A stretch of 64,000 bases of DNA, from contig CAVTRC010000001.1 in NCBI GenBank assembly GCA_963737065.1, positions 2,240,001 through 2,304,000 of the forward strand, written 5' to 3'. Positions 3,273 through 57,620 of the stretch are shown one piece after another (position 1 is the stretch's first letter; each line of letters begins with the position of its first letter). This DNA comes from Candidatus Eremiobacteria bacterium (GTDB lineage: Bacteria; Vulcanimicrobiota; Vulcanimicrobiia; Vulcanimicrobiales; Vulcanimicrobiaceae). The notes under the pieces are model-generated. The model made no database searches and was not told the origin of the DNA. It saw only the letters and a list, made by a program, of their open reading frames with translations. Made by a program: the position numbers and the translations under genes.

Positions 3273-3833
3273 CTACAAGCGCCCCAAACGCTCGAGTGCA
3301 GCATACGCAACCGCAATAGACGGCACCGCGCCAATCTCACCGGCACGTAGCCGCCGTGCGAATTCATCGACGGGCATCAGCGTAAACTCGACTTCTTCGC
3401 CGTCGTCGAGATGCTGCTCGTGCGTTCGCTTCGCGTCACGTGCAAGGTACGCGTGCATAATGGAATTCGAACGCACCGGGTCGGAGGGCGCGATCATCAG
3501 TTCTTCCCAGTCATCCGCGGTGAAGCCCGTCTCTTCGATTAGCTCGCGTTGCGCGCAACGTAACGGATGCTCTTGCTCTTCGATTGCACCGGCCGGCAGC
3601 TCCAGCGTGATGTCGTCGATGCCGTAGCGATACTGATACACGACGACGACGTGATCGTCGTGCGTGATCGCGAAAACGATGATGAATCCCGGTGATTCGC
3701 GGATGAAGTAATCGGTAATCCGCTTGCCGTCAGGCAGCTCGATTTCGTCCTTACGTATCTTGAGAAACTCCGAGTCGATCACCAACGTACGGGATCGCAC
3801 GTTCCACTGCGGTTTTTCCATGCGCCGTTTCAT
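3273..3833 (-). CDS. NUDIX hydrolase (ADP-ribose pyrophosphatase-like)
   Basis: Nudix box GAIEEQEHPLRCAQRELIEETG and QYRY motif. Start at 3833 or 3821. Confidence 0.9.
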   Translation of the reverse strand: MKRRMEKPQWNVRSRTLVIDSEFLKIRKDEIELPDGKRITDYFIRESPGFIIVFAITHDDHVVVVYQYRYGIDDITLELPAGAIEEQEHPLRCAQRELIEETGFTADDWEELMIAPSDPVRSNSIMHAYLARDAKRTHEQHLDDGEEVEFTLMPVDEFARRLRAGEIGAVPSIAVAYAALERLGRL

Positions 3834-3865: not shown

Positions 3866-5473
3866 ATGAAACGGCCCGTGCAAGAGAAGGTCCTTGTAGC
3901 GGGCGGCGGCACGATGGGCGCGGGCATTGCGTTCGTCGCGGCACGCGGCGGTTATGCCGTAGAGCTCATCGAGCCCGACAGCGGCGCGCGCACGCGGGCG
4001 CAGGAACGCTGGCGCAAAGACGCAGAGCGCGCAGGCGATGCGGCGATCTTCGAACGTCTAACGTTTCTCGACGACGTCCCCGCAACAAGCGACGCGGCTA
4101 TTGCGATTGAAGCGGTGCCCGAACGGTTCGACGTCAAACGTCAGGTCTTGTTGAAGTTCGAATCCGCGCTTGCAAACGATGCGATCGTCGCAACGAACAC
4201 GTCGTCGCTCTCCGTCGATGAACTCGCTGATGTCGTCGATCATCCGGAGCGTGTCGTCGGTCTTCACTTCTTCAACCCGCCGGTCGCGATGAAGCTCGTC
4301 GAAGTGATTGCGGCCAACGCAACGTCCGATGATGTCCTCGACCGCGCGCACGCGTTCGTGGAGCGTCTCGGCAAGACGGGCGTCGATGTTGCCGATACGC
4401 CGGGATTTATCGTCAATCGTGTGGCCCGGCCGTTCTATTTGCAATCGATGCGCGCGCTCGATCTGGGCGTTGCGAGCGTACCGGAGCTCGATGCGCTCGC
4501 GCGTGCGGCGGGGTTTCGCATGGGACCGTTCGAGTTGATGGACCTGATCGGGATGGATGTCAACTTCGCAACGACCCTCTCGGTGTACGAACGGCTTGCA
4601 GCCGAACGTTTGACGCCGATCGAACTGCAGCGGCGGATGGTTTCCGAGGGACGTCTCGGACGAAAAACCGGGCAAGGATTTTACGACTACGCGGGAGGCG
4701 ATCCCGAGCGTATCGATCTTCGCGTGGAAGCGGCCGCATCCGAGGAGCGCAATGAGGACGAAATCGTTTGCGTCGTCGGCTTCGGGACGATTGCGGAGCA
4801 GCTGACCGAGATGCTGCACGAGCACTATGCGAACGTCATTGGGATTCACAACGATGAGGCGCTCGATGAACTTCCGCTCGACGTGACGCTCGTCGTCGAT
4901 GCCGGTGACGGCATGAGCGATCGTTCGTCGGTCGCGCGCTCCCTTGACTCGCTGCTCGGTCCGGACACGATCATTCTCGTGGATGCGTATGCGACCGATC
5001 TTTCGGAAACGACGAAACGCATGCGCCATCCCGAACGCGTCGTCGGCTATGGCATCGTCGGCGCGCCGGAAACGCAATACGCGGTCGAAATCGTCGACAG
5101 TGACATCGTCTCCGATGATGCGCTTGCGCTCGCGCAAGAGTTGTTCGAATCGATTGGAAAAGGCGTGTGTTTGGTCGAGAACGTTCCGGGTCTCTTTCTC
5201 GGGCGCGTCATCGGCGCGATCGTCAATGAAGCGGTTACCGCCGTGCATGAAGGCGTTGCGACGGCCGACGATGTCGACACCGCGATGCGTCTCGGCGTAA
5301 ATTATCCGCAAGGACCGATCGCCTGGGGGCGCGAGATCGGCGGGCGTCGCCTAACGCACATCTTGCGTCGAGTCGCCGAAGCCGAAGGCGAAGCATTCGC
5401 GCCGCATCGCGCGCTCTGGGTGTTAGACGTTCGCGAAGAGGAAGGAGCGGACCAGATCGATGCAGGGATGTGA
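3866..5473 (+). CDS. paaH: 3-hydroxyacyl-CoA dehydrogenase (PaaH-like, duplicated C-terminal domain)
   Basis: GGGTMGAGIA, ATNTSSLS, GLHFFNP, PGFIVNR and MGPFELMDLIG motifs, plus a second degenerate HADH module. Confidence 0.88.
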   Translation: MKRPVQEKVLVAGGGTMGAGIAFVAARGGYAVELIEPDSGARTRAQERWRKDAERAGDAAIFERLTFLDDVPATSDAAIAIEAVPERFDVKRQVLLKFESALANDAIVATNTSSLSVDELADVVDHPERVVGLHFFNPPVAMKLVEVIAANATSDDVLDRAHAFVERLGKTGVDVADTPGFIVNRVARPFYLQSMRALDLGVASVPELDALARAAGFRMGPFELMDLIGMDVNFATTLSVYERLAAERLTPIELQRRMVSEGRLGRKTGQGFYDYAGGDPERIDLRVEAAASEERNEDEIVCVVGFGTIAEQLTEMLHEHYANVIGIHNDEALDELPLDVTLVVDAGDGMSDRSSVARSLDSLLGPDTIILVDAYATDLSETTKRMRHPERVVGYGIVGAPETQYAVEIVDSDIVSDDALALAQELFESIGKGVCLVENVPGLFLGRVIGAIVNEAVTAVHEGVATADDVDTAMRLGVNYPQGPIAWGREIGGRRLTHILRRVAEAEGEAFAPHRALWVLDVREEEGADQIDAGM

Positions 5474-6635
5474 AGTGTTCGTTGTCGACGCGGTGCGTAC
5501 GCCGATTGGACGGTTCGGCGGTGCGCTCGCGTCGTATCGTCCGGACGATCTTGCGGCAGCGGCCATCGCGGCCGTCGTGCAACGCGCGCAGTTGCCGTAC
5601 GATCGAATCGACGACGTGTTCTTCGGTGCGGCAAACCAAAGCGGCGAAGACAATCGCAATGTCGCGCGGATGGCCGCGCTGCTCGCCGGATTGCCGGTCG
5701 AAGTTCCGGGCGTCACGCTCAATCGTCTGTGCGGTTCGAGCCTGCAAGCAATAAACTCCGCTGCGCACGCGATCGCGGCCGGCGAGGCCGACGTCATCGT
5801 GGCGGGAGGCGTTGAATCGATGAGCCGCGCGCCGTACGTGTTGCCGAAGACCGACAAACCGTTCGGCCGCGGTCAGCAGCTGTTCGATACCGTGCTCGGC
5901 TGGCGGATGACCAATCCGAAGATGCTGAAAGACTGGACGATCCCGCTCGGCGAAACCGCGGAAAACGTTGCAAAGAAATACGGCATCACGCGCCAAGAGC
6001 AAGACGAGTTCGCGTACGCGTCGCAGATGAAGGCGAAAGCGGCAATCGAAGCAGGCCGTTTCGATGATGAACTGATCGCCGTCGGCGACGTGCGTGTGGA
6101 CGAACATCCGCGTGTCGATACGACGCTCGAAGCGCTCGCGAAGCTGAAACCGGCGTTCGCGCCAAACGGCAGTGTGACGGCCGGCAACTCATCGGGGATC
6201 AATGATGGTGCGGCGGCACTCGCGCTCGCCTCAGCGCACGCCGTCCAGGAATTGAACCTCAGGCGTATTGCGCGTATTGTTGCAACGGCATCGGCCGGCG
6301 TGGCGCCCGATGTCATGGGACTAGGTCCGATTCCCGCGACGCGCAAAGCGCTCAAAGCGGCGGGATTAGCGGGCGGGGACCTCGACCTCATCGAGATCAA
6401 TGAAGCATTCGCCGCACAGTCGGTCGCTTGTATGCGCGAGCTAGAATTGGATCCGCAAAAGACGAACGTCAACGGTGGAGCGATTGCGCTTGGCCATCCG
6501 CTGGGGGCGAGCGGGGCGCGTATCGCAACGACGCTTCTTCATGAACTGCGCCGCCGCGGCGGCCATTACGGCCTTGCGACGATGTGTATCGGCGTCGGTC
6601 AAGGCATTGCAACCATTTTCGAACGGACGGAGTGA
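5460..6635 (+). CDS. pcaF: Acetyl-CoA C-acyltransferase (3-oxoadipyl-CoA thiolase, PcaF/PaaJ type)
   Basis: ANQSGEDNRNVARM, NRLCGSS, NEAFAAQ, GHPLGASG and MCIGVGQG motifs. Confidence 0.9.
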   Translation: MQGCEVFVVDAVRTPIGRFGGALASYRPDDLAAAAIAAVVQRAQLPYDRIDDVFFGAANQSGEDNRNVARMAALLAGLPVEVPGVTLNRLCGSSLQAINSAAHAIAAGEADVIVAGGVESMSRAPYVLPKTDKPFGRGQQLFDTVLGWRMTNPKMLKDWTIPLGETAENVAKKYGITRQEQDEFAYASQMKAKAAIEAGRFDDELIAVGDVRVDEHPRVDTTLEALAKLKPAFAPNGSVTAGNSSGINDGAAALALASAHAVQELNLRRIARIVATASAGVAPDVMGLGPIPATRKALKAAGLAGGDLDLIEINEAFAAQSVACMRELELDPQKTNVNGGAIALGHPLGASGARIATTLLHELRRRGGHYGLATMCIGVGQGIATIFERTE

Positions 6636-6638
6636 TCG

Positions 6639-8087
6639 ATGAGCTCGACGCTGGAAGCATCCGGTACCACCTACGAAGACCGCAATCCGGCAACAGGCGC
6701 CGTCATTGCGCACGTGCACGAGACGACGCGCGAAGAACTCGATGCGGCGGTGAAGTCGGCGCGCTCAGCGTTCGACGGCGGCAGATGGTCGAACATGGCA
6801 GCTTCGCGCCGCGCGAAGATCGTCTATAAGATCGCGCAGCTGATCGCCGAACGCGCGCAAGAGTTGATGATGCTCGAAGTCCGCGACAACGGCAAAGCGG
6901 TTGCAACCGCAAAGGGCGAGATCGGTGCGATCGTCGATTGTTTCGAGTTCTACGCCGGCGCTGCAACAAAGAATTACGGTGAAACGATTCCGCCGCCGCT
7001 GCCGACGTATCTCGCGAATACGGTCCGCGAACCGGTCGGCGTCGTCGGTGCAATCGTTCCGTGGAATTTTCCGTTGCTGCTCGCGTCGTGGAAAGTCGCG
7101 CCTGCGCTCGCCGCCGGATGCACGGTCGTGCTCAAACCCGCTCCCTCTACGCCGCTCACCGCAATCGAACTCGGGAAGATCGCCCTCGAAGCGGGCGTTC
7201 CTGAAGGCGCCCTCAGCATCGTTACAGGTTCCGGACGCGAACTCGGACAGTGGCTCGTCGAACATCCGCTCGTCGATAAAATTGCGTTCACGGGCAGTAC
7301 CGCAACCGGAAAGATCGTCGCAAAAACCGCGGCCGAAACCGTCAAGCGCGTCACGCTCGAGCTCGGCGGAAAATCGCCGACGCTCGTCTTCGATGACGCC
7401 GACATCGATGCTGCGGTCGCGGGCGCGCTCTACGGAATTTTCTACAATGCGGGTCAAGCATGCGAAGCGCGTTCGCGCGTGCTGCTCCATCGTCCGATAT
7501 ACGACGCGTTCGTTGCGTCGTTCGTCGAGCGCGCGCAAAATCTGCGCGTCGGAAATCCGGAAGACCCGCAGACGCACGTCGGCGCGATCACGTTGGCCGA
7601 ACAATTCGAGAAGATCAAGTCGTACTGCGAGATCGGCCGCAGCGAAGGTGCGCGAGCATTGATCGGCGGAACGCCGGCCGCGCTCGGCGACGAGTTCGCG
7701 AACGGAATGTTCTGGACTGCGACGGCGTTTGAAGCGCAACCGGGACATCGCATCGCGCGTGAAGAGATTTTCGGGCCCGTCGTCACGTTCACACCGTTCG
7801 ACGATGAAGCGCAGGCGGTCGTACTCGCGAACGACGGTGACTACGGGCTCTCCGCGAGCGTCTGGTCGAACAACATCGGACGTGCCAACCGCGTTGCGCG
7901 GGCGATTCGCAGCGGCACCGTCGCGATCAACACGCCGTATGCGGTCTTTCCCGGCGTGCCGTTCGGCGGGTATAAGCAGTCAGGGTACGGCCGCGAACTC
8001 GGCATGGAGACGATGCGGCTTTACACCGAGACCAAGAGCGTTCTAACGTACGTCGGAGAGAAAGCGATGAACCCGTTCGGCCTATGA
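6639..8087 (+). CDS. NAD(P)-dependent aldehyde dehydrogenase
   Basis: PWNFP, FTGST, LELGGKSP, catalytic NAGQAC, EEIFGP and PFGGYKQSG motifs. Confidence 0.92.
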   Translation: MSSTLEASGTTYEDRNPATGAVIAHVHETTREELDAAVKSARSAFDGGRWSNMAASRRAKIVYKIAQLIAERAQELMMLEVRDNGKAVATAKGEIGAIVDCFEFYAGAATKNYGETIPPPLPTYLANTVREPVGVVGAIVPWNFPLLLASWKVAPALAAGCTVVLKPAPSTPLTAIELGKIALEAGVPEGALSIVTGSGRELGQWLVEHPLVDKIAFTGSTATGKIVAKTAAETVKRVTLELGGKSPTLVFDDADIDAAVAGALYGIFYNAGQACEARSRVLLHRPIYDAFVASFVERAQNLRVGNPEDPQTHVGAITLAEQFEKIKSYCEIGRSEGARALIGGTPAALGDEFANGMFWTATAFEAQPGHRIAREEIFGPVVTFTPFDDEAQAVVLANDGDYGLSASVWSNNIGRANRVARAIRSGTVAINTPYAVFPGVPFGGYKQSGYGRELGMETMRLYTETKSVLTYVGEKAMNPFGL

Positions 8088-8395
8088 TCAAAATCGGAGC
8101 GTACTACGAGACGACCTACGGCACGCTGTGGAAAGACGGTACGTATTTTCCGCGCGGCACGCGCGTGCTCGTTGTCGGCGTGCATCTCGATCAAGGTTTT
8201 TGCGTGCGCTTTCCGGCGGAAATCGAGGACGAGCCGCTCGAAACGTGGGAAGACTGGGGCGAATCGTCATTCCTTGCTGATGAAGGCAGCGTTCAACCCG
8301 CCGAACCGATCTCGCGCGCGGTCTTGAGCGAAGCGCGCGCCGTGCTTTCCGATGCCGAAGACGGCAGCCACCTGCATCTTCACGAAGAAGATTAG
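8084..8395 (+). CDS. Small acidic hypothetical protein coupled to the ALDH gene
   Basis: 103-aa ORF with ATGA overlap to the ALDH stop and plausible composition. Confidence 0.65.
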   Translation: MIKIGAYYETTYGTLWKDGTYFPRGTRVLVVGVHLDQGFCVRFPAEIEDEPLETWEDWGESSFLADEGSVQPAEPISRAVLSEARAVLSDAEDGSHLHLHEED

Positions 8396-8853
8396 AACGA
8401 TAGCGTTACGCCGACCGTCCCCCAATATGGCGTACAGTCGTATTGCGTGCGCGGCAGCGGTGTCGGACCCGGTGTCGATGACGGTCCCGGAGTTGGCTGG
8501 AATGTTGCGCTAAAACAATAGGTTACGGTCGGTGTGAGGTTGCTGAAAACGGCTTTGCCCGGCCCCGGGCTCGCGTTGCTGAACGGCGCCGTCGTCTGCG
8601 TTGCGAGCGGCGTGCCGACGCTTCCGTTTACCGACGTCGACAGCGTGACCGTTTGATTCGGTAGCGGAGATGACGAGTAGTAGACGGACACAACCGCTGT
8701 CGATGCACTCGGGTCCGGCGACGGCGACGCGGTCGATGTCGGAATCGGCGTCGGTGTTGCGGAACCGAACAAATCGTTGACGTCGCCGTTGTTGCAAGCG
8801 GCAAGCGCGAGCGCTGTGGCAGCGAAGGCAAACGCGAGATAACGTTTGGGCAT
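8392..8853 (-). CDS. Pro/Thr-rich lipoprotein, hypothetical
   Basis: Signal peptide with lipobox (MPKRYLAFAFAATALALAAC) and PTP repeats. Confidence 0.75.
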   Translation of the reverse strand: MPKRYLAFAFAATALALAACNNGDVNDLFGSATPTPIPTSTASPSPDPSASTAVVSVYYSSSPLPNQTVTLSTSVNGSVGTPLATQTTAPFSNASPGPGKAVFSNLTPTVTYCFSATFQPTPGPSSTPGPTPLPRTQYDCTPYWGTVGVTLSF

Positions 8854-8872
8854 GGCGCGGTGGCTTCGACGC

Positions 8873-9703
8873 TTATGCCGATGCTGCCTGGCCGGTTGCA
8901 TCGAAGAAGAATCTCAGCGATTTCCGATCGATCGCGGCGTAATATTCGCGGAAAAGCGCGGCCGCCGTCGTGCCCGGCCAGTGCGCCGGAAGCAGCGTGC
9001 TCGGAAGTCCCGGATCAACATACGTGAACTTGCGATAGTCATGAACGAGCCATAAGCGCTCGACGAACGCCTCCTCTTGCGAGAGGCCTCCTCGTTCACG
9101 CTCCCGAGCCAAGCGCGGCTCGTACATATGAATGAAGTCCCGATACGCCGATGCGATCGCTTCAAGATCCCAACACTTACTCAGCAATTCGCGATCGCTG
9201 CGCGGACCCGCATAGTCGCTTACGAACAAGTCGATGTTGTCCGCGACACCTGCAGACTCGACGATCTCGCGAACGTCTTCCATTGCATCGCGCGGTGACA
9301 ACCAGGTGGACGAAGATAGCGGCGCCCAACCGAGCACGGTGAGTTCTTTGCGCAACCGGTCGCGCCGTTCGCGTTGCGCTTCGGCTACGCTGTAGGTCAG
9401 CATGCGCCAGCGTCCATCCCACTCGACGACCGGTCCGTAAATCCGAGGGCTCAGGCCTTCGATGCGCCGGCGCCCGCGGTCGGTCACGGCATAATAGGCC
9501 CGATTCCCGGTTCGATGCGCCGACAGCCAGCCTTGTCGCGACATCCGCGACACCGCCTGGCGCACGGCCGCTTCCGATAGACCGAACGGCGCCATGAGGC
9601 GGACGAGGCCGCCGATCCACAGTGATCCCTCGGTCACATGGCGGTGCACCAAGTCACCGTATAAGGTGAAAATGAAGGAATTGGGCCTTGTTATTTGACG
9701 CAT
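8873..9703 (-). CDS. paaX: PaaX-family transcriptional regulator
   Basis: SFIFTLYGD, AVRQAVSRMSRQGWL, WDGRW, WDLEAI and DPGLPSTLLPAHWPG motifs. Confidence 0.92.
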   Translation of the reverse strand: MRQITRPNSFIFTLYGDLVHRHVTEGSLWIGGLVRLMAPFGLSEAAVRQAVSRMSRQGWLSAHRTGNRAYYAVTDRGRRRIEGLSPRIYGPVVEWDGRWRMLTYSVAEAQRERRDRLRKELTVLGWAPLSSSTWLSPRDAMEDVREIVESAGVADNIDLFVSDYAGPRSDRELLSKCWDLEAIASAYRDFIHMYEPRLARERERGGLSQEEAFVERLWLVHDYRKFTYVDPGLPSTLLPAHWPGTTAAALFREYYAAIDRKSLRFFFDATGQAASA

Positions 9704-9780
9704 TCGTCGCTAATATATCACTGTTCTCACGGAAACCATTAAATCCGTCATAACGGGGCGTCCCGGAAAGGCGTTGCACC

Positions 9781-10908
9781 ATGGCGCGCATCAGCACCTT
9801 CGACGACTGGATCGATCTCCTGAAGGATTGGCAGAAGGACATCGGCCTGGACCAAGAGCTCATCGAGCGGTTCATGCCGGGATACACGTTCCAAGCGAAA
9901 TACGGCGAACTCGCGACGCCGGAGATCTATTTCGGCGACTTCAAAGGCGAGCGGAGATGGGAGAAGGTGCGCGAGATCCCCGATCAGCGCATGCGCGATG
10001 CGGTGCTCAACATGATCGTCTATCAGGGCGATACGGAGTTTGCGTCGAACGAACAGCAGCGCTTTCTCGTCAACAACGCGCCGTCGGAGTACGATCTCGC
10101 CTCGCTCGTGCGCATCATGGTCGAAGAGACGCGTCACGGGTATCAAATGTGCCATCTGCTGGTCAATCAGTTCGGCAGCGAAGGTAAGATCGAAGCGCAG
10201 AAGATGCTGGAGCGCCGCGCATTCGGGAAGAAGAACCGGCTGCTCAACGCGTTCAACGACGACGTGACGCATTGGCTCGACTTCTTTGCATACACGAATT
10301 TCATGGATCGCGACGGCAAGTTCCAATTGACGATGCTCTCGCACTCGAGTTTCGCGCCGCTCGCGCAATCGATGGGTCCGATGCTGCGTGAAGAGTCGTT
10401 CCACATGGGCACCGGCATCACCGGGCTGCGTCGCATTGCGAAAGCCGGCATCATTCCGGTCGACATCCAACAGAAGTACTACAACAAGTGGATTTCGGGA
10501 TCGCTCGATCTTTTCGGAACGGATCACTCGGGTTCGGCGCAATGGGCGTACACCTGGGGAATCAAAGGACGCGTGGACGAAGATAAGACGGCCGATTCGG
10601 TCGACAAAGAACACTTGAACGAGCGCGCGCGTCAGCAGTTCCACGACGAAGTGCAGGCGACCGTCGATCGAGTCAACGAAGTGAACCCGAGCGAGACGAA
10701 GCTCTATGTCCCCGACATGAGATTCAACCGCCAGATCGGCGAGCATGCCGGTAAATTCTTTACCGTCGACGGTCGCCAACTCACGAAAGGCGAGTGGGAG
10801 TCGTACATGCCGAGCGTTCTTCCTACGCCGGCCGACGACGACGTCCTCAAGAGCTATTTCAAAGATTCCGACTGGATCGCACCCAAAGGCAATTTGAGCG
10901 CCAACTAA
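9781..10908 (+). CDS. Ferritin-like di-iron aryl-CoA epoxidase, BoxB-like (PaaA/PaaC superfamily)
   Basis: QGDTEFAS.EQQ, APS.YD, EETRH, DRDGKFQL and EESFH match the BoxB di-iron ligand pattern. At 375 aa it is shorter than canonical BoxB. Confidence 0.82.
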   Translation: MARISTFDDWIDLLKDWQKDIGLDQELIERFMPGYTFQAKYGELATPEIYFGDFKGERRWEKVREIPDQRMRDAVLNMIVYQGDTEFASNEQQRFLVNNAPSEYDLASLVRIMVEETRHGYQMCHLLVNQFGSEGKIEAQKMLERRAFGKKNRLLNAFNDDVTHWLDFFAYTNFMDRDGKFQLTMLSHSSFAPLAQSMGPMLREESFHMGTGITGLRRIAKAGIIPVDIQQKYYNKWISGSLDLFGTDHSGSAQWAYTWGIKGRVDEDKTADSVDKEHLNERARQQFHDEVQATVDRVNEVNPSETKLYVPDMRFNRQIGEHAGKFFTVDGRQLTKGEWESYMPSVLPTPADDDVLKSYFKDSDWIAPKGNLSAN

Positions 10909-10919
10909 GGGACAACGAT

Positions 10920-11780
10920 ATGAGCACGACAGCTAACGGTACCGCAACCCAAGCGACGCCCTTCGGGCGCGAAGGGCGCATCTTTGACGGCAAGCGCGTC
11001 ATCAACCACTGGAAAGACGGACACATCGGTTTCGTCGAAATGAATGATCCGCCCGCGAATACCTACACGCACGAAATGATGCGCCAGCTCGATGAAGCGA
11101 TTCTTGACGCGCGCTTTGACAGCGACGTGGAAGTGATCGTGCTCACCGGCGCGGGTGAAAAGTTCTTCTCTGCCGGCGCGAACATCAACATGTTGAACTC
11201 GGTGACGCCGGAGTTTAAGTACATGTTCTGCTTGCATGCGAACGAGACGCTCTCGCGTTTGGAACAGACGCCGAAACTCGTGATCGCCGCACTCAACGGC
11301 CATTGCGTCGGCGGCGGCATGGAGATCGCCATGGCGGCCGACATCCGGATTGCGCGTCAGGATTCCGGAAAGATGGGTCTACCCGAAGTTGCACTCGGCG
11401 TTTTGCCGGGCACGGGCGGGACGCAGCGCCTCGCGCGCCTCGTCGGTAAGGCGCGAGCGATGGAGCTTATGGTGAGCGGCAAGACGTTCAGCTACGAACA
11501 GGCACTCGACTGGGGCGTGATTAGCGACATTTACGAAGGCTCCGCCGACGAATTTCGCGAGCAGATCACCGACTACGCGCGTCAATTCTGTAGCCCGAAC
11601 AAGGCGCCGATGGCAGTCGGTCACATCAAGCGCAGCGTGCAGACCGGCGCGGAACTTCCGCTCAACGACGCGCTCGCGCTCGAACGGGAACTCCAGTCGC
11701 TGCTCTTCAAGAGCGAGGATGCGAAAGAAGGCATCTCCGCGTACAATGAAAAGCGCGTCGCGAGATTCAAAAATAAATAG
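10920..11780 (+). CDS. Enoyl-CoA hydratase/isomerase (crotonase family)
   Basis: FSAGAN, GGGMEIAMAAD and LPEVALGVLPGTGGTQRL motifs. Directly downstream of the epoxidase. Confidence 0.9.
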   Translation: MSTTANGTATQATPFGREGRIFDGKRVINHWKDGHIGFVEMNDPPANTYTHEMMRQLDEAILDARFDSDVEVIVLTGAGEKFFSAGANINMLNSVTPEFKYMFCLHANETLSRLEQTPKLVIAALNGHCVGGGMEIAMAADIRIARQDSGKMGLPEVALGVLPGTGGTQRLARLVGKARAMELMVSGKTFSYEQALDWGVISDIYEGSADEFREQITDYARQFCSPNKAPMAVGHIKRSVQTGAELPLNDALALERELQSLLFKSEDAKEGISAYNEKRVARFKNK

Positions 11781-11805
11781 CCGTTGCACGTCATCACGAC
11801 CGGCG

Positions 11806-11834
11806 GGCCGCTCGTCTCGAGCGGTCTTTTATTT
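11806..11834 (+). terminator. Rho-independent terminator
   Basis: Stem ggccgctcg/cgagcggtc followed by ttttattt. Confidence 0.65.
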
Positions 11835-11899
11835 GACCTTCTTACACCATCAAAACAAAAGCGCGAGGTTCTCTCAGGTTTCGTTCGTACCATGAGCGA

Positions 11900-12877
11900 A
11901 TGCGAATCGCGGGGCTCTTCCTTCACACCGCCTGGCGCAGTGCTGGAACGTGGATTTGGCAACAGTTCCGCGCGCGGGACAACGTCATGGGTTTTTGCGA
12001 ACCGCTTAACGAGTGGCTCGCAGACGCCAAGCCGAGTACGCTGCTCGAACCGCGGCCGGAAATTTGGCCTTCCGGCCATTCCGACATCGGGCCCTATTTT
12101 GCGGAATATGCGCCGCTCCTGACCCCACGAGGCGTCGCCGGCTACGATCGACGCTTCGCGTACGAGTCGTACTTCATGCCCGTATCGCAAGGCGTGTCCG
12201 GTCTCGAGCGCTACGTCCAAAGCCTCTGCGATCTCGCGCACGCGAACGGACGACTGCCCGTTCTCAAATTCACGCGATCGCTCGGACGCGTTGAATGGAT
12301 GCGCACGCACTTTCCGGACGCCGCGCACGTGGTCATCGTGCGCAGCCCGCTCGCGCAGTACCGCTCGGCCGCACACCTGTACACGCGCGGACATCGCGAT
12401 TTCCTGGCGTCGCCGATTGCGCTTCTGGCGCACTTCGAGGAACATCCGGTCGTTCGTGACGTGCTCTGCGGACTTCAATGCAACGTACGCGCCGTTCGAC
12501 GGCGCACGCTGGAACGGACGCGCGTCGCGGCCGAACAGTATGTCGCGCGGGGAAACCCGCAAGAAACGTATCGTACGTCGCTTGCGTTTTGGCTTGCAAC
12601 GGCGCTGACGTCGATGCCGTTCGCCGATCTCGTGATCGACGCTGAATGTCTGGCCGAGAACGCCGAATACCGTAGGCTCATCGAAGAACGGTTGGCCGAG
12701 CTTTCAGGTATCGACATTTCGTTGGCGTCCGCGTCTGCGCCGTCATCCGGCGACGTCGGCGGGCTGATGCCGCCGAATGACGTGCTCCGAACGCTTCACG
12801 AGTCCGGCCGATCGATTTCGGAGAGATTTGCCGCGCATAGCGACGTCAATGCCGAATTGCTCGCAAAACTAGCATAA
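11900..12877 (+). CDS. Sulfotransferase-like hypothetical protein
   Basis: N-terminal FLHTAWRSAGTW (PAPS-binding-like), EPLNE and VRSP..Q..S motifs. Confidence 0.6.
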   Translation: MRIAGLFLHTAWRSAGTWIWQQFRARDNVMGFCEPLNEWLADAKPSTLLEPRPEIWPSGHSDIGPYFAEYAPLLTPRGVAGYDRRFAYESYFMPVSQGVSGLERYVQSLCDLAHANGRLPVLKFTRSLGRVEWMRTHFPDAAHVVIVRSPLAQYRSAAHLYTRGHRDFLASPIALLAHFEEHPVVRDVLCGLQCNVRAVRRRTLERTRVAAEQYVARGNPQETYRTSLAFWLATALTSMPFADLVIDAECLAENAEYRRLIEERLAELSGIDISLASASAPSSGDVGGLMPPNDVLRTLHESGRSISERFAAHSDVNAELLAKLA

Positions 12878-12905: not shown

Positions 12906-13751
12906 ATGCCGGGAGGGGACGGACTGCGCGATTGCAAGTCCAAACGCGTGGGGCTGTATGCGTTTCCGTCGTTTCTGCTCTTGCTACTCGCAGTCGTCGT
13001 GGCGCCGGTGCTGGCGTGTGTTGGACAGTGGTTCGTCCATCGCAAGCTGAACCTTCGAAGGTTCTTCGTGGACAACGACGTCGCCGGATTTATCATTGCG
13101 GTCGTCGGCTCACTATATGCCGTGCTTCTCGGTTTTATGACCGTTATCGTGTGGACGCATTATGAAGCCGCTCGACTTCGCGTTTGGGACGAATCAGCGA
13201 GCGTCGCGGACGTCTGGCATGACGCTGTGGGTCTACCTCCCGCGCTCAGCCGTCGCGTTCGCCACGACATGCTCGAATATTCGAACACGATGATCGACAA
13301 AGAATGGCCCGCGATGCGCAGCGGAGGCTTTAGTGTCGTCGGTGATGAGCTCATTATGGACGCCGCGACGGTCGTCGGCCAGTTCGCACCGAAGACGTCG
13401 GCTCAGAGCAATGCGCAAGCGGCGATCATCGAACGCTTGAACGAAGTACACGACGCGCGTGGAGCTCGGCTCGCCTCGAATGCCGACGGAATGCCGGCGT
13501 TTCAATGGGCGGTGCTTTGGATCGGCGCGATTGTCGTGCTAGCGTTTTGTTATTTGTTCAGTGTCTCGCATTTGAACGCCCATATGTTGATGACGGGGTC
13601 CGTTTCCGTCTTGATCGCGACGATGTTCGTGTTGATCTTCGAACTGCAACTGCCGTTTCGCACGGACATCGGGATTAAACCGCAAGCGTGGCAGGCGTTG
13701 ATCGTACACATTCACTCGATGGACAAAATGCCGAACCCGATGTCGATGTAA
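12906..13751 (+). CDS. DUF4239 / bestrophin-like membrane protein
   Basis: VGSLYAVLLGF.TV.VW, EWPAM and LQLPF motifs with 4 TM segments. Start uncertain. Confidence 0.75.
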   Translation: MPGGDGLRDCKSKRVGLYAFPSFLLLLLAVVVAPVLACVGQWFVHRKLNLRRFFVDNDVAGFIIAVVGSLYAVLLGFMTVIVWTHYEAARLRVWDESASVADVWHDAVGLPPALSRRVRHDMLEYSNTMIDKEWPAMRSGGFSVVGDELIMDAATVVGQFAPKTSAQSNAQAAIIERLNEVHDARGARLASNADGMPAFQWAVLWIGAIVVLAFCYLFSVSHLNAHMLMTGSVSVLIATMFVLIFELQLPFRTDIGIKPQAWQALIVHIHSMDKMPNPMSM

Positions 13752-13871: not shown

Positions 13872-14246
13872 GTGAAACGAGGTAAGGTGCGGGCGCCCGA
13901 CCAGAAGCAGCGCCGCGAAGCGACGCCGATTCGCAAGGCCACGCTCCATATGCCGCCTTTGCTTGGGGCACTGTGGAACACCATTGCACCGGGACGTTGC
14001 CGGCGGTGGCAACTGCAGGATGCAAAGTCGCAGTTCAGTGAGGTGGTCCAACGGGCGCTTGAAGGCGCACCGCAGTGCGTGACCAAGCATGGCAAAGATG
14101 CCGTCATCGTCATCGCGTACGAAACGCTGATTCAAGCGGTGCGACCAAAACAGAATCTCTACGAGTTCCTTCGATCTTCACCGCTCGTTGGCGCCGACTT
14201 AAATTTTGAGCGCCTTCCCGGGGACGTTCGCGAGGTCGACTTTTGA
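13872..14246 (+). CDS. Phd/YefM-family antitoxin
   Basis: WQLQDAKSQFSEVVQRA...PQCVTKHGKDAVIV. Confidence 0.85.
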   Translation: MKRGKVRAPDQKQRREATPIRKATLHMPPLLGALWNTIAPGRCRRWQLQDAKSQFSEVVQRALEGAPQCVTKHGKDAVIVIAYETLIQAVRPKQNLYEFLRSSPLVGADLNFERLPGDVREVDF

Positions 14247-14680
14247 GTGGGTTTTTGATGGACACCTGCGCCATTTCCGATGCAACGAAGGCACGTCCCG
14301 ATACGGGATTGACCGGCTGGCTGCGGTCCGTTGATCCCACACAAGTCTACATAAGCGTGGTAACGCTCGGGGAAATTCGCAAGGGAATCGAATGTTGTAC
14401 GAACGCAGTCAAAAAAGCAACGCTGGAAGCGTGGCTTACTAACGATGTCGCACAACAGTTCGCAGGACGCGTGCTGCCTTTCGACGCTGAAGTCGCAGAC
14501 CGCTGGGGTCGATTGGTTGCTGCGCTACAGCAAGGCGGTATCACCGCAGCGGCGATCGATTCCCTCATCGCTGCGACGGCGTTGGAACATAACCTGAGTG
14601 TCGTTACGCGGAACGAAAAAAATTTTGGACCGATGCGCATCTCAATCACAAATCCGTGGTTAGCATCTCCATCTCCGTAA
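14243..14680 (+). CDS. vapC: VapC PIN-domain toxin
   Basis: LMDTCAIS, SVVTLGEI, DSLIAATA and VTRNEK motifs. Overlaps the antitoxin stop. Confidence 0.9.
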   Translation: MSGFLMDTCAISDATKARPDTGLTGWLRSVDPTQVYISVVTLGEIRKGIECCTNAVKKATLEAWLTNDVAQQFAGRVLPFDAEVADRWGRLVAALQQGGITAAAIDSLIAATALEHNLSVVTRNEKNFGPMRISITNPWLASPSP

Positions 14681-49745: not shown

Positions 49746-50099
49746 ATGAACCCGTATGGACCGGTAGGAATTTATCTCGTCGTCGCGCTCGCGGCGGCAC
49801 TGCTCTTCACGTTTTTGCCCGGATTGCTCGGGCGCGCGAAACCGAATCCGCAGAAACAAGACGCGTACGAGTGCGGCGTCGAGCCGACCTCGGCGGTCGC
49901 CGGACGGTTCCCCGTGCGCTTCTATCTTATCGCGATGCTTTTTGTAATCTTCGATGTCGAAGCCGCGTCGTTCTATCCTTGGGCGGTTCAGATGCACGCG
50001 TTACGAGTCTTCGGCTTGGTCGAGATGGTCGTTTTCGTCATCGTGCTCGCGATTGGGTATGCGTATGTGTGGAAGAAGGGCGGCTTTGAGTGGAGATAG
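49746..50099 (+). CDS. nuoA: NADH-quinone oxidoreductase subunit A
   Basis: YECG and [14 protein letters not shown] motifs. Confidence 0.95.
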
Positions 50100-50569
50100 G
50101 TCCGGGGCAATTTTTACTCGCGCGATTGGACGACGTCGCGCGTTGGGCGCAGAGTTCGTCGGTGTGGCCGCTCACCATGGGCTTGGCGTGCTGCGCGATC
50201 GAGATGATGTCGGTCACCTCCGCCGAGTACGATATCGCGCGCTTGGGTTCCGAAGTGTTTCGTAGTTCGCCGCGTCAAGCGGATCTGATGATCGTCTCCG
50301 GTCGAGTTGCGCAAAAGATGGCGCCGGTCGTCAAGCGTCTCTACGATCAGATGGCGGACCCGAAATGGGTGATATCGATGGGCGCATGCGCAAGTTCGGG
50401 CGGCGTTTTCGATAATTACGCGGTCATCCAAGGCATTGATACGATCGTTCCCGTCGACGTTTACGTTCCGGGATGCCCGCCGACGCCGGACGGCTTGCTG
50501 TACGCCGTCAATTTAATTCAGCAGCAAATCCGAGAAGGTGGCCGCGGCGGCATCTTAGTCCGGTCATAA
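50090..50569 (+). CDS. nuoB: NADH-quinone oxidoreductase subunit B
   Basis: [15 protein letters not shown] and PGCPP motifs. Confidence 0.95.
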
Positions 50570-50579
50570 GGAAAACGCG

Positions 50580-51232
50580 ATGCCTAGTACACAATCACCG
50601 CCGATCGCGGGTGCCGCGATCGATCCTCCGAGCGTGCGCCCGGCGATCGATGACGCCGTCATCGAACGCGTCGAAGTGCAAGCGCTGCGCGCGCGGCTGG
50701 AAGCGCTCGAAGCCGAAGGATATACGATGCTGCTCGATCTCGCGGCGGTCGACTATTTGCCGCGCGACCCTCGGTTCGACGTCGTCTATCATCTCTTGAA
50801 GATGCCGGTGCAAGGACCGCTGAGCGTCGATCGCGTCGGCAAACCGCAACGCTGCCGTATCCTCTGCGGAGTTCGGGATGGCGAGCACGTTCCCAGCGTG
50901 ATGGATCGTTGGAAGAGCGCCGACTGGGCGGAACGCGAAATTTTCGATCTCTTCGGTATCGTTTTCGACGGCCATCCCGATCTGCGCCGGATTCAAATGC
51001 CGTACGACTGGGTCGGCCACCCGCTGCGTAAGGATTATCCGCTGCGTGGGCCCGCGCGCGAACGTTCACCGCGCCCCACGTTCGCGCTGAAAAGCAACGT
51101 ACAAGCCGGTACGCCGCCCTCGGGCCGCACGCTCGAAGCGCTGCAAGAGCAGATAAAACAAGCTCGGCAATCGAATCTGCGGATCGGCCGGAGGCCGAGC
51201 GTCACGGATTCGCCGGAGGCGAATCCAGATGA
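50580..51232 (+). CDS. nuoC: NADH-quinone oxidoreductase subunit C (true stop obscured by a probable frameshift; end approximate)
   Basis: [23 protein letters not shown] and GHPLRKDYP motifs. Confidence 0.88.
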
Positions 51233-52449
51233 GTATGTCGACGACTCCGCTCACCCCGGAGATCGTTTCGCAAGAAGGCAACTCGATGGTCCTTTCGATG
51301 GGGCCGCAGCATCCCTCGACGCACGGCGTGCTGCAAATCATGCTCGAGATCGAGGGCGAGTCGATCGTCAAAGCGGAGCCCGAGATCGGCTACCTGCATA
51401 CCGGCATCGAGAAGAACATGGAGAACCTGTTTTGGTCGCAAGCGCAGACCAATGCGGAGCGCATGGACTATCTCGCTCCATCTTCCAACGCGCTCTGCTA
51501 TGCGCTCGCCGTCGAGAAGCTTCTCGGCATTACGGACCGCATTCCGCCGCGCGCCCAACATATTCGCGTGTTGCAAGCGGAACTGACGCGCGTCGCCTCG
51601 CACTGTGTCTGGCTCGGAACACACGGCATCGACCTCGGCGCGATCTCCGTCTTCTTTTATTGCTTCGATCTGCGCGAGAACATTCTCGATCTGCAAGAAG
51701 CATCGGGCGGCGCGCGCATGCATCCGAATTACGTGCGCGTCGGCGGCCTCAACGGCGATTTACCGGACGGCTACATCGGCAAGCTCGACGCGTTGATCGA
51801 AAAATTTCCCGGCCGCATGAGAGAATTGCGCGGCCTCTTGCAAGCGAATCCGATCTTTCAAGACCGCACGATCGACGTCGGTGTGATATCTACCCAAGAA
51901 GCCGTGCAGTGGGGTGTGACCGGTCCGTCGCTGCGCGCCAGCGGCATCGCATATGATGTACGCAGAGCCTACCCGTACACGGGATACGAGCGCTACGAGT
52001 TCGATGTGCCGACACGTACGGAAGGCGACGCATACGCGCGCTTTCTCGTGCGCTTGGACGAGATGGAAGAGTCGATGCGCATCATTCGGCAAGTGCGCGA
52101 GGATCTCGATACGCCGGGTCCGGTCGCGATCGACGATCCGAAGATCTTCGCGCCGCCGAAAGAGACGATCGCGCTTTCGATGGAAGCGTTGATCCATCAC
52201 TTCAAGATCGTGAGCGAGGGGTTCCGCGTTCCGCCGGGCGACGTGTATTCGCCGATCGAAGGACCGCGCGGCGAAGTAGCGTTTTACATCGTCAGCAATG
52301 GTGAGAACCGCCCGTATCGCGCGCGCTTGCGCCCGCCGAGCCTCTATAACTTACAGTGCCTCAAAGGCATGGCGCCGGGAAATCTGATCGCGGACTTGGT
52401 CGTGATGATCGGTTCGCTCGACCCGGTATTCGGCGAGGTCGATCGCTGA
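51229..52449 (+). CDS. nuoD: NADH-quinone oxidoreductase subunit D
   Basis: [21 protein letters not shown] and DPVFGEVDR motifs. Confidence 0.96.
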
Positions 52450-53333
52450 TGCATGATATCGAACCGACGGGCGCGGACTTGCACGAAGACGGCTCGTTCG
52501 CGAGCCTCTACCATGCATTGCGTCCGCAGTGCGAAGCGCTGATCGCGCAGTATCCGGAGAAACGGTCGGCCCTTTTGCCGTTGATGCACCTCTTTCAAGA
52601 ACATGAGGGATACGTCTCGCAGAACGCAATGCGCGCCGCCGCGGAAATGCTCGACATCTCGCCGGCGGTCGTCGAATCGACCGTGTCGTTCTACACGTTG
52701 TTCTTCCGCAAGCCCGTCGGCAAGTACATGCTGCAAGTTTGCCGTGGATTGATGTGCGAACTGCGCGACGCGGACGATATCATGGCATACGTTCGTGAGA
52801 AGCTCGGCATTGGCCATCTCGAGACGACGGACGACGGGATTTTCTCATACGAAGAAGTCGAATGCCTTGCCGCCTGCGATCGGGCGACGTGCATGCAGGT
52901 CAACTTGGAATTCGTTTACGATCTGACGCCGCAGATGATCGACGATATGATCGCGGCCATGCGCGCGGGCACGTACAAAACGAAGTCGATGGCGCAAACC
53001 GCCAAGCCGCAACGCACGTGGAAGGTTGCGCAGGACGCGCAGATCAGTACGGGACGCAAATCGCCCGGGACGCTGAATTCGAGCGAACCGAATAATGCGG
53101 GCGGAATCGGCGATCCGAGCGGCATCATCATGCTCGACCGCTTCGTCACGCGCGACGTCTCCTTCACGGGGCGCACGAAAGAGCGCACGGTTCGCGATGC
53201 GCGCGGCGTGTATGAAATTGCTGAAGACGAAGCGGCGCCCGATGAGGCGCGCGCAGCCGAAGGCGCAGCGCCTGTTGAACCACCGGGGTCCCTAGCCGAC
53301 GTAGATCGATTGGGTGAGTATGCCGGTCACTAA
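52449..53333 (+). CDS. nuoE: NADH-quinone oxidoreductase subunit E with C-terminal extension
   Basis: RSALLPL, SFYTLF, VCRGLMC and ECLAAC motifs. Confidence 0.9.
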   Translation: MHDIEPTGADLHEDGSFASLYHALRPQCEALIAQYPEKRSALLPLMHLFQEHEGYVSQNAMRAAAEMLDISPAVVESTVSFYTLFFRKPVGKYMLQVCRGLMCELRDADDIMAYVREKLGIGHLETTDDGIFSYEEVECLAACDRATCMQVNLEFVYDLTPQMIDDMIAAMRAGTYKTKSMAQTAKPQRTWKVAQDAQISTGRKSPGTLNSSEPNNAGGIGDPSGIIMLDRFVTRDVSFTGRTKERTVRDARGVYEIAEDEAAPDEARAAEGAAPVEPPGSLADVDRLGEYAGH

Positions 53334-54582
53334 AGTGCTCACCGCGGGAATCGGCGAGGCGAATTTGCGCGATATAGACGTGTATCGCGCGCGCGGCGGA
53401 TATCGGCAGTGGGAACGCGCCGTGCGCGATCTCACGCCTGCGGCCGTGATGGAAGCATGCGATAAATCAGGATTGCGCGGACGCGGCGGCGCGGGCTTCC
53501 CGACCGGGCGCAAGTGGCAGTTTTTGCCGAACAACGGCAAGACGCGTTACATGGTGTGCAACTGCGACGAAGCTGAGCCCGGTACGTTCAAAGACCACAT
53601 GCTGCTCGAGCAGACGCCGCATCTGGTGCTCGAGGGCATCTTGATCGGTGCATACGGCATCGGTTGCAGCCATGCGTTCATCTATATCCGCGGTGAGTTC
53701 AAGGAAGGGTACGAAATCTTTATGCGCGCGGTCGCTGAAGCGCGCGCTGCGGGATTGATCGGCCGGAATCTCTTCGGAACGCAGTACGGCGTTGAGATTA
53801 CCGTGCACCGCGGCGCGGGCGCATATATTTGCGGCGAAGAAACCGCGCTGCTCAACTCGCTCGAGGGCAAGCGCGGTGAGCCGCGTCTGAAGCCGCCCTT
53901 CCCCGCCGTTGCGGGCCTGTATGGGATGCCGACCGTCGTAAACAACGTTGAGACGCTCGCGTATTTGGTCCCCATTCTGCAGAACGGTTGGGAGTGGTTC
54001 GCATCGGTCGGAACGGAGCGCAGTAAGGGTTACAAGATCGTTTCCGTTTCCGGTCACGTGCAGAAGCCGGGCAACTACGAAGTACCGCTCGGAACGCCCG
54101 TGCGCGAGATCATCGAGATTGCCGGCGGACTGCTGCCGGGACGCACATTCATGGCCGTGCAGCCCGGCGGCCAATCGTCGGCGTGCATTTTCGAAGAGCA
54201 TCTCGATTTTCCGTACGACTATGAGTCGATGGCGAAGGCAGGTTCGATGCTGGGTTCCGGAGCCTTTACCGTGTTCGACGACACGACCGATTGGGTGAAA
54301 GCCGCCCGTAACTCGATCCGTTTCTACGCGCACGAATCGTGCGGCCAATGCACGCCGTGCCGTGAAGGCGGACACTGGCTCGAACGCGTGCTCGACCGTT
54401 TCGTCGAAGGTTACGGTATACGCGGCGATCTCGACATGATCCGGCGCGTCAGCACGACGATTACCGGATTGAATCTCTGCGCGCTCGGCGATTCCATCGA
54501 GCCGTTTTTGATGTCCGTCTTCAAGCGCTTCCCCGAAGCGTTCGAAGCGCGCGTACGTAATGAAGAAGCAGTAGGAGTATGA
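53314..54582 (+). CDS. nuoF: NADH-quinone oxidoreductase subunit F
   Basis: SGLRGRGGAGFPTG, GAGAYICGEETAL and ESCGQCTPCREG motifs. Alternative start at 53320. Confidence 0.96.
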   Translation: MSMPVTKVLTAGIGEANLRDIDVYRARGGYRQWERAVRDLTPAAVMEACDKSGLRGRGGAGFPTGRKWQFLPNNGKTRYMVCNCDEAEPGTFKDHMLLEQTPHLVLEGILIGAYGIGCSHAFIYIRGEFKEGYEIFMRAVAEARAAGLIGRNLFGTQYGVEITVHRGAGAYICGEETALLNSLEGKRGEPRLKPPFPAVAGLYGMPTVVNNVETLAYLVPILQNGWEWFASVGTERSKGYKIVSVSGHVQKPGNYEVPLGTPVREIIEIAGGLLPGRTFMAVQPGGQSSACIFEEHLDFPYDYESMAKAGSMLGSGAFTVFDDTTDWVKAARNSIRFYAHESCGQCTPCREGGHWLERVLDRFVEGYGIRGDLDMIRRVSTTITGLNLCALGDSIEPFLMSVFKRFPEAFEARVRNEEAVGV

Positions 54583-57559: not shown

Positions 57560-57620
57560 GGATGCCTCCAATGAACTGCTTCAACCGATCGTTTGTGACG
57601 ATTTCATCGGAGGCCTCCTA

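Follow-up and report, generated by a model that had tools for sequence, protein, structure and literature searches.

We describe here a 64,000-nucleotide stretch of the genome of a Candidatus Eremiobacteria bacterium (GenBank assembly GCA_963737065.1, contig CAVTRC010000001.1, positions 2,240,001 to 2,304,000; hereafter the window) that encodes, on its plus strand, a short BoxB-like di-iron acyl-coenzyme A (CoA) oxygenase of the PaaA_PaaC family (PF05138; 375 amino acids (aa), positions 9781-10908) and, directly behind it, a single crotonase-fold enzyme of 286 aa (10920-11780). Judged by sequence and gene context, these two proteins, an aldehyde dehydrogenase (ALDH), a PaaH-like dehydrogenase and a PcaF/PaaJ-like thiolase may well form an aerobic CoA-thioester (‘hybrid’) route for aromatic acids that is independent of BoxA and BoxC, a reading that we hold to be slightly more probable than not. 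We infer benzoyl-CoA or a near relative of it as the substrate, epoxidation of its ring as the reaction, the crotonase as a stand-in for BoxC, and a PaaX-type regulator as the sensor of the aryl-CoA. The system is not peculiar to the window’s genome and belongs to a widespread family.

The initial annotation of the window had described a 375-aa di-iron protein with the ligand spacing of BoxB, and the four motifs on which it relied (QGDTE, EETRH, DRDGK and EESFH) are all found in the translation and correspond, in the alignment with BoxB, to its iron ligands Glu120, Glu150/His153, Asp211 and Glu240/His243. The protein matches the BoxB structure 3PER (E 3.6e-53, residues 47-353), is 41-42% identical to canonical BoxB over ~367 aligned positions, and scores above the cut-off on the PaaA_PaaC family (41.4 bits vs. 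28.5) and below it on the PaaA model TIGR02156 (38.8 bits vs. 280). It is without ~100 residues of canonical BoxB, spread over six segments (the first 21-25 residues, ~16 near the N-terminus, a 19-residue stretch, 18-23 internal residues, 7 near the C-terminus and the last 9-12). This length is typical: nearly all of the 120 best-scoring 90%-identity clusters, from 4920 found at E≤0.001, are 370-378 aa long and 79-90% identical to the oxygenase, which is therefore no frameshift remnant or truncation artefact. At least one existing annotation source names such short proteins benzoyl-CoA oxygenase component B.

A published account (PMC5489048) sets out the roles of the iron ligands and pocket residues of BoxB and gives Gln116, Thr119, Ser123, Phe193, Phe203/Phe206 and Thr210 as the second-shell residues that orient the benzoyl group. 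The six ligands together with Gln116, Thr119, Ser123, Phe193 and Phe203 are identical in the window’s oxygenase, and the pocket differs at two places, Phe206 being replaced by Tyr and Thr210 by Met. The ligands and Gln116/Thr119/Ser123/Phe193 are kept in 21/21 short forms from the phylum and in 80/80 of the best short forms from other phyla; Phe203 is kept in 15/21 and 76/80, respectively. Of the same best 80, 75 have Tyr206, and position 210 is occupied by Ile (49 sequences), Val (30) or Met (one).

We followed the family through a sample of 301 genomes of the phylum, Eremiobacterota, up to ten of them unpublished, in which f and g numbers denote families and genera; our claims are independent of the unpublished genomes, except for one g27 genome with canonical BoxB. 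The short protein was matched at E≤0.001 in 218/301 genomes, and a hand count, which discounted ~10 that were very weak, 22 that matched no better than canonical BoxB does, nine divergent paralogs from f11 and f20, and two others, leaves the true short form in ~175 (roughly 142/206 in the window’s family, within which identities are mostly 80-94%, 3/3 in f2, 21/22 in f3, 1/1 in f7, 2/3 in f18 and 5/5 in f19). Twenty loci were picked from these carriers for diversity (12 from the window’s family, 2 from f2, 3 from f3, 1 from f7, 2 from f19 and 2 from f18), and their layout was read from tblastn maps and same-strand open reading frames (ORFs), since in such high-GC (guanine and cytosine) DNA longest-ORF calling picks antisense frames. 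A scan of one genome per species returned at least 592 relatives, the best 80 of which were used for loci; they come from Gemmatimonadota, Acidobacteriota/Terriglobia, Binatia, Thermodesulfobacteriota and other ‘delta’ lineages, and also from Zixibacteria, Chloroflexia, Eisenbacteria, Methylomirabilota, Verrucomicrobiota and Planctomycetota. One of these loci (L133) is the same contig as L056, a locus already fetched separately, and L150, 83% identical and with PaaX adjoining, is probably from Eremiobacterota.

The crotonase that the initial annotation had placed 3′ of the oxygenase is indeed a single enzyme of the expected size: the ORF spans 10794-11780, translation probably begins at its ATG at 10920, the product matches Pfam ECH_1 (184.6 bits, cut-off 27), its best match among known structures is 2PPY (E 2.9e-71), and its mean column identity over 17 orthologs is 81%. 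Its linkage to the oxygenase, likewise anticipated, is conserved; the two genes adjoin in 16/20 phylum loci, a crotonase ortholog of 58-82% identity is found in 46 of the 80 best other-phyla loci (32 of 47 where the sequence extends 5 kb or more to each side), and presence and absence agree at the level of genera. Orthologs occur in 183/301 phylum genomes (E≤1e-80), with genus tallies that mirror those of the short oxygenase: 58 of the 59 genomes in the largest genus have one, none was found in genera without the short form, the same 4/10 genomes of a polymorphic genus have both proteins, and in the genus with canonical BoxB the sole genome with a short-form fragment has the crotonase directly beside that fragment. 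Genomes of f11 and f20 hold a clear crotonase ortholog (E 1e-91 to 1e-114) and a distant BoxB-like protein (E ~1e-33 to 1e-38), and because of this combination the crotonase may pair with more than one oxygenase subclade. Structure prediction of an oxygenase-crotonase complex gave no support (score 0.06 vs. a mark of 0.32), a result that counts neither for nor against binding. A review (PMC4498308) describes BoxB as monomeric, minor amounts of BoxA as sufficient for it, and the crotonase-fold BoxC as co-purifying with BoxB and relieving its product inhibition; a dedicated crotonase partner is plausible for these reasons.

The wider gene set recurs as well. ALDH is encoded in 10 of the 20 phylum loci, the thiolase in 9 and the PaaH-like dehydrogenase in 6, and among the best 80 loci of other phyla these numbers are 35, 31 and 28. 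Gemmatimonadota, Acidobacteriota and other phyla have the same core, made up of the oxygenase, the crotonase, ALDH, the thiolase and the dehydrogenase. In Gemmatimonadota, a same-strand series runs from a TetR gene through the crotonase ortholog, ALDH, thiolase, a second crotonase and the short oxygenase to GDPD and a third crotonase-containing ORF, at which tblastn places the dehydrogenase; the core in Terriglobia is much alike, with genes for Fer2_2 and molybdopterin-binding proteins after it (Pfam-level assignments). Loci from Binatia and Thermodesulfobacteriota are without the crotonase, and there the oxygenase gene is followed by genes for a thioredoxin-like [2Fe-2S] ferredoxin (NuoE-like) and a NuoF-like flavoprotein, which supports a requirement for electrons. 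An aromatic substrate is supported by a benzoate-CoA-ligase-family gene that adjoins the crotonase in several loci. Three phylum loci carry such a gene and a two-subunit CoA-transferase directly 3′ of the crotonase; the ligase of one of them (L049), which directly follows the crotonase, scores 571 bits on TIGR02262 (cut-off 375) and has homologs of 62-90% identity in the same position in two more genera-level loci and of 44-45% in two Binatia loci. Two f3 loci carry the CoA-transferase, and among the best 80 loci of other phyla a benzoate-CoA-ligase-like gene is found in 3 and a CoA-transferase in 2.

Canonical BoxB is also present in the phylum, scoring above the cut-off in 26/301 genomes and concentrated in one genus (19/19); loci L071-L073 are examples. 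BoxC was confirmed in one canonical-BoxB genome, G129, where BoxB occurs with a true BoxC (825 bits), an acyl-CoA synthetase/ligase and a BoxR/BzdR-like regulator. BoxA was not found above noise in any of the five canonical-BoxB genomes searched (G011, G053, G129, G055 and G150), so that being without BoxA characterises the phylum rather than the short form, and the classical system must use another reductase in these genomes.

By the names of homologs, the organism would belong to Eremiobacterota, family Baltobacteraceae. The window’s genome (3.08 Mb in 2 contigs, 95% complete) was searched with family models for BoxA, BoxC, PaaK, PaaE and PaaA_PaaC. BoxA was not found (best match 31 bits vs. 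a cut-off of 459), nor was BoxC, whose best match is the neighbouring crotonase (85 bits vs. a cut-off of 712, where the true BoxC from the same phylum reaches 825); PaaK was not found above noise, PaaE gave a weak FNR-like match only, and the PaaA_PaaC model matched the present gene alone, leaving no second PaaA/PaaC gene. Searches by tblastn with E. coli PaaB, PaaD, PaaE, PaaI and PaaK gave no match covering at least 40% of the query, and PaaZ, sought by tblastn with the E. coli protein only, matched ALDH-type genes alone (24-29% identity). The claim that the window holds no BoxA, BoxC, PaaABCE or CoA ligase thus extends, by family models, to the whole genome as far as boxA, boxC, paaE and paaK are concerned, but has to be qualified in two respects: one ligase candidate lies on the other contig, and NuoE and NuoF are encoded in the window itself. 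That ligase (339 bits on the benzoate-CoA-ligase family, cut-off 375) belongs to a second aryl-CoA ‘hybrid’ cluster on contig 2 (331630-341707, locus L074), which encodes a bifunctional salicylyl-CoA 5-hydroxylase/oxidoreductase (1278.7 bits, cut-off 1078), a PRK08258-type crotonase and an acyl-CoA dehydrogenase, with a caffeoyl-CoA-type O-methyltransferase nearby. Because of this cluster and its near-cut-off ligase, we argue that the organism handles aryl-CoA esters and has a candidate activating enzyme outside the window.

All ORFs of the initial annotation were recovered by ORF listing and family scans where it had placed them, among them the divergent paaX gene and, on its far side, the genes for a 3-hydroxyacyl-CoA dehydrogenase, a PcaF/PaaJ-like thiolase and an ALDH. 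The dehydrogenase (535 aa, 3866-5473, plus strand; Pfam 3HCDH_N and two C-terminal 3HCDH stretches) is 34% identical to E. coli PaaH, with the C-terminal domain duplicated as in PaaH, and stays below the cut-offs of NF006124 (411.8 bits vs. 508) and of the PaaH model TIGR02279 (367 vs. 669). The thiolase (391 aa, 5460-6635, plus strand) has 3-oxoadipyl-CoA thiolases as its best models, narrowly missing TIGR02430 (547.7 bits vs. 597), and is 54.6% identical to E. coli PaaJ. The ALDH, predicted to be NAD(P)-dependent (482 aa, 6639-8087, plus strand; Pfam Aldedh 571.8 bits), reaches no NCBIfam equivalog, its best being BADH, HpaE and StyD. Further sets of dehydrogenase, thiolase and crotonase genes exist at three other places in the genome, and the copies here are therefore additional ones and not housekeeping.

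The PaaX-family regulator (276 aa, 8873-9703, minus strand), divergent from the oxygenase gene, is 34% identical to E. coli PaaX and falls slightly short of the equivalog model TIGR02277 (252.5 bits vs. 264.55), with its three Pfam domains (PaaX, PaaX_M and PaaX_C) all above their cut-offs. The proposed association of PaaX with the oxygenase stood within the phylum, where the gene is present in 14/20 loci and adjacent and divergent in 13, but is essentially limited to it, PaaX being found in 1/80 of the best loci elsewhere. Alignment of the paaX-oxygenase intergenic regions of 11 genera revealed a conserved block (9711-9748, plus strand) that may serve a repressor as operator; it consists of TAATAT (9711-9716 in the window) and, just downstream at 9729-9748, the inverted repeat ACGGA-N10-TCCGT. 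In its strict form the repeat occurs at two places in the 3.08-Mb genome, the second copy lying on contig 2 near 551584, where ORFs are open on both strands. It is reasonable to regard the repeat as the predicted operator of the adjacent PaaX-type repressor. The repeat emerged from the multi-genome alignment; an inverted-repeat finder run on two intergenic regions returned nothing useful, and a sigma-70 consensus scan did not call the conserved promoter-proximal block. The sequence TGATTCGYG, which we take to be the core of the E. coli PaaX box, was tried and rejected, with 2 matches in the window vs. 4.9 expected and none at promoters.

These observations can be arranged into a route whose steps rest on homology and gene context. 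A ligase or CoA-transferase whose gene lies elsewhere would convert an aromatic acid into its CoA thioester; the di-iron enzyme, using O2 and two electrons from a donor for which no gene lies nearby, would then add oxygen to the ring of benzoyl-CoA or a similar compound, most likely forming an epoxide, and the co-conserved crotonase would help to open or hydrate the product. The resulting semialdehyde would be oxidised by the ALDH, and hydratase, dehydrogenase and thiolase would yield succinyl-CoA and acetyl-CoA, while the PaaX-type repressor, probably released by aryl-CoA, would control at least the oxygenase-crotonase promoter. The streamlined variant pathway put forward in the initial annotation is thus supported in part: the separate clade of the oxygenase, the missing partners and the crotonase linkage speak for it, the ligase candidate does not, and its PaaX component is confined to the phylum.

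Several findings weigh against this route, and those that concern the oxygenase also bear on the alternative that survives best, namely that the chemistry is the same and the substrate a substituted benzoyl-CoA (e.g. hydroxy- or amino-), with benzoyl-CoA itself left to canonical BoxB. On the BoxB equivalog model TIGR03225, the window’s protein scores 226.2 bits, below the cut-off of 499.1, where canonical representatives reach 672-908. In a quick IQ-TREE phylogeny (LG+G4) of 39 rows, in which 21 short forms and 5 canonical BoxB sequences were joined by representatives of 11 further 50% clusters and rooted with PaaA and PaaC of E. coli, it lies, as had been expected, outside ordinary BoxB; canonical BoxB forms one group, the window’s protein belongs to a separate group of 25 rows (SH-like approximate likelihood ratio test (SH-aLRT) 97), and the f18/f19 homologs form a third, with several rows long-branched and the deep branching order not resolved. 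Tyr206 with Met, Ile or Val at 210 is found in 21/21 phylum short forms, and Phe/Thr in 5/5 canonical BoxB; moreover, two genomes of the sister family f2 (G055 and G150) hold both forms. Since the pocket residues differ and the two forms coexist, a different substrate or role can be argued. A substituted substrate would be in keeping with the hydroxyl that Tyr206 adds to the ring pocket and with the hydrophobic residue at 210, both clade-wide (21/21 in the phylum, Tyr in 75/80 elsewhere), with the coexistence of the forms in G055 and G150, and with the Fer2_2 and molybdopterin-binding genes that one Terriglobia locus carries beside the operon, which at Pfam level are of the xanthine-dehydrogenase/4-hydroxybenzoyl-CoA-reductase type; the salicylyl-CoA 5-hydroxylase cluster, too, puts substituted aryl-CoAs within the organism’s repertoire. 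However, a reductase of the Hcr type would give plain benzoyl-CoA, which fits the route proposed above equally well, and the L049 ligase scores best on the general benzoate-CoA-ligase family and far under the cut-off of the 3-hydroxybenzoate ligase model (335 vs. 1000 bits). We regard a substituted substrate as unlikely, if the most serious of the alternatives.

A second set of findings concerns the crotonase, which scores far under the BoxC, PaaG and alternative oxepin-CoA-hydrolase models and resembles an ordinary enoyl-CoA hydratase. E135 and E156, the two acidic positions of the hydratase motifs, which we take to be the catalytic glutamates, are invariant in 17 orthologs, and the four phylum loci without a crotonase are those of f18/f19 homologs, 46-49% identical, that stand alone in unrelated contexts. 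These hydratase-type motifs, and the remoteness from all three of the models just named, weaken the claim that the crotonase is the ring-opening enzyme, and from sequence we would call it a tentative assignment, somewhat more likely to fail than to hold. As its closest relatives are ordinary enoyl-CoA hydratases, the protein may be a downstream hydratase only, in which case the route would leave ring opening without explanation. The same features invite a different view, in which there is no ring epoxidase and an alicyclic or aliphatic acyl-CoA is hydroxylated or desaturated and then enters a cycle resembling beta-oxidation. The best matches of the crotonase are plain enoyl-CoA hydratases, no BoxC-like, PaaZ-like (tblastn, E. 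coli PaaZ) or other recognised ring-opening enzyme was found in the cluster or genome, and the gene pair is kept in small genomes of ~2 Mb and is 80-94% identical within the family, as might be expected of a role that is central and not peripheral. Yet the BoxB residues that hold the benzoyl group are almost all kept, a benzoate-CoA-ligase-family gene adjoins in several loci, both the thiolase (PcaF/PaaJ) and the dehydrogenase (PaaH) belong to the adipyl-CoA type, and ALDH, superfluous to plain beta-oxidation, is a constant companion; a non-aromatic substrate seems to us improbable, and a little more so than a substituted aromatic one.

The BoxA- and BoxC-independent aromatic route must further accommodate the finding that no reductase, ligase or CoA-transferase is encoded in the oxygenase cluster. 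The genome’s only NuoF homolog (53314-54582) lies within the complex I operon (50090-57621; NuoB, NuoC, NuoE, NuoF and NuoG by Pfam), and this complex I NuoF is the sole homolog of the NuoF-like reductases that accompany the short BoxB genes of Binatia. The repeat scan found no copy upstream of the dehydrogenase-thiolase-ALDH operon; as the repeat is conserved at the oxygenase-crotonase promoter and was not found there, control by PaaX is plausible for the oxygenase-crotonase unit alone. We also found no activity on record for any member of the short family, and neither public sequencing runs nor RNA data sets were listed for positions 8800-11900. The alternative of functionally unrelated neighbours around a degenerate, inactive relic of BoxB is, despite three split genes in the window that indicate decay or assembly indels nearby, very improbable given an intact ORF of the same length as in hundreds of homologs, invariant iron ligands throughout, and a crotonase linkage that crosses phylum boundaries.

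Compared with the BoxAB/BoxC/BoxD system of Azoarcus (Aromatoleum) evansii (3PER, 3PM5), the window’s locus shares a monomer-type di-iron oxygenase of the PaaA/PaaC family acting, by prediction, on a CoA thioester, identical in each of the iron ligands and in all of the pocket residues listed above but two of the seven, an adjoining gene for a crotonase-fold partner, an ALDH, and then beta-oxidation enzymes of the adipyl-CoA type. It differs in that its oxygenase is ~100 residues shorter, 41-42% identical, in a separate clade and marked by Tyr206/Met210, in that BoxA was not found, in that the partner is a single-domain 286-aa crotonase and not the two-domain, 550-aa BoxC, and in that the regulator is of PaaX and not BoxR type. 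With the E. coli PaaABC(D)E pathway, it has in common a PaaX-family repressor gene beside the oxygenase gene, PaaH-like and PaaJ-like proteins (34% and 55% identical to their E. coli counterparts) and the hybrid logic of CoA ester, epoxidation, hydrolytic ring opening and aldehyde oxidation; in contrast, its oxygenase is only 22% identical to PaaA and consists of one subunit and not a multi-subunit complex, and genes of the PaaB, PaaC, PaaD, PaaE, PaaK, PaaI and PaaZ types were not found in its genome. In the alternative type of oxepin-CoA hydrolase, a crotonase stands in place of the PaaZ hydratase domain and is paired with a separate ALDH for ring hydrolysis and semialdehyde oxidation. This type (NF046063) offers a precedent for a stand-alone crotonase with a stand-alone ALDH, but the window’s crotonase reaches 120 bits on its model against a cut-off of 300, and plain enoyl-CoA hydratase models score higher. 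The short BoxB loci of Binatia and Thermodesulfobacteriota (L084, L100 and L103) belong to the same clade (55-57% identical by tblastn) and are also without BoxA; they encode a candidate reductase and no crotonase, whereas the window’s locus has the crotonase and no reductase. Our literature search, made mainly at abstract level, found no publication describing the short family. We take to be new the Eremiobacterota form under PaaX with its conserved, candidate operator-like site, its almost universal presence in the family, the match with the crotonase genus by genus, the signature of Tyr206 and a hydrophobic residue at 210, and the finding that the canonical BoxB-BoxC clusters of the phylum are also without BoxA.

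The remaining features of the region touch the pathway less directly. A 103-aa conserved protein (8084-8395, plus strand), whose start overlaps the ALDH stop, matches no Pfam or NCBIfam model, has 658 homologs whose source names, where given, are mostly of Eremiobacterota type, and is encoded after the ALDH in 7 of the 20 phylum loci. It is acidic, with His34, Cys40, His96, His98 and His100 invariant and a C-terminal HLHLH motif; because His34, Cys40 and HLHLH do not vary, it may bind a metal. One of five AlphaFold models is confident (predicted local distance difference test (pLDDT) 84.7; the others 46-55) and shows a small beta-barrel, for which Foldseek returned weak SH3/Tudor-like matches only, none of them significant; with a best E of 0.011, these led to no conclusion on the protein as an effector or a PaaB-like subunit. 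Whether it belongs to the pathway is uncertain. A 169-aa ORF (8392-8901, minus strand) has a signal like that of lipoproteins, in which an Ala-rich stretch leads up to a Cys, and a body rich in Pro, Ser and Thr; it shares 29 bases with the 3′ end of paaX, and its conservation beyond the genus is weak. Downstream of the crotonase gene, a terminator-like hairpin (11805-11827, plus strand; 10 pairs, 7 of them G-C) is followed by a T-rich tail to 11837; a terminator consensus scan gave 7 sites vs. 10.3 expected in the region, the hairpin at 11805 having the longest stem. A Nudix hydrolase gene (3273-3823, minus strand) precedes the dehydrogenase gene.

Elsewhere in the window, an Lhr-type helicase and then a PdeM-like phosphoesterase (3-2744) make up a ligase-associated DNA damage response gene set, and a Phd/YefM-type antitoxin and a PIN-domain VapC toxin (13872-14680) lie 3′ of a bestrophin-like gene (12906-13751). 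Three genes, for the Lhr-type helicase (3-1100/1111-1974), a beta-lactamase-fold protein (14965-15651/15443-16315) and a cysteine-desulfurase-like protein (16339-17133/17100-17606), are each broken into two ORFs that differ in frame, which may reflect either pseudogenes or indels introduced by a long-read assembly, and the oxygenase cluster itself, unlike them, is intact.

Genes of the box type serve metagenome surveys as markers of aerobic benzoate degradation, and the short proteins are labelled as BoxB by at least one annotation source despite failing the equivalog model and being without either known partner. Should the short clade prove to oxygenate aryl-CoA with the help of its small crotonase, the degradation of plant-derived aromatic acids by abundant uncultured soil phyla is being mislabelled and misunderstood mechanistically; should its substrate instead turn out to be non-aromatic, databases hold a large number of wrong labels. 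A bolder possibility, rather less likely than not and no more likely than a ring-opening crotonase taken by itself, is that the oxygenase and crotonase are a self-sufficient ring-oxygenating and ring-opening pair, a third and so far unrecognised type of aerobic aryl-CoA dearomatisation next to BoxAB/BoxC and PaaABCE/PaaG/PaaZ, in which the crotonase is a new ring-cleaving hydrolase and general donors supply the electrons. Such a minimal two-protein system would interest enzymologists for the residues that set substrate choice, for a 286-aa replacement of BoxC and for the delivery of electrons; and because the pair is present in most sampled genomes of Eremiobacterota and in many of Gemmatimonadota, Acidobacteriota and Binatia, it would amount to a major overlooked route of aromatic-acid degradation in soil.

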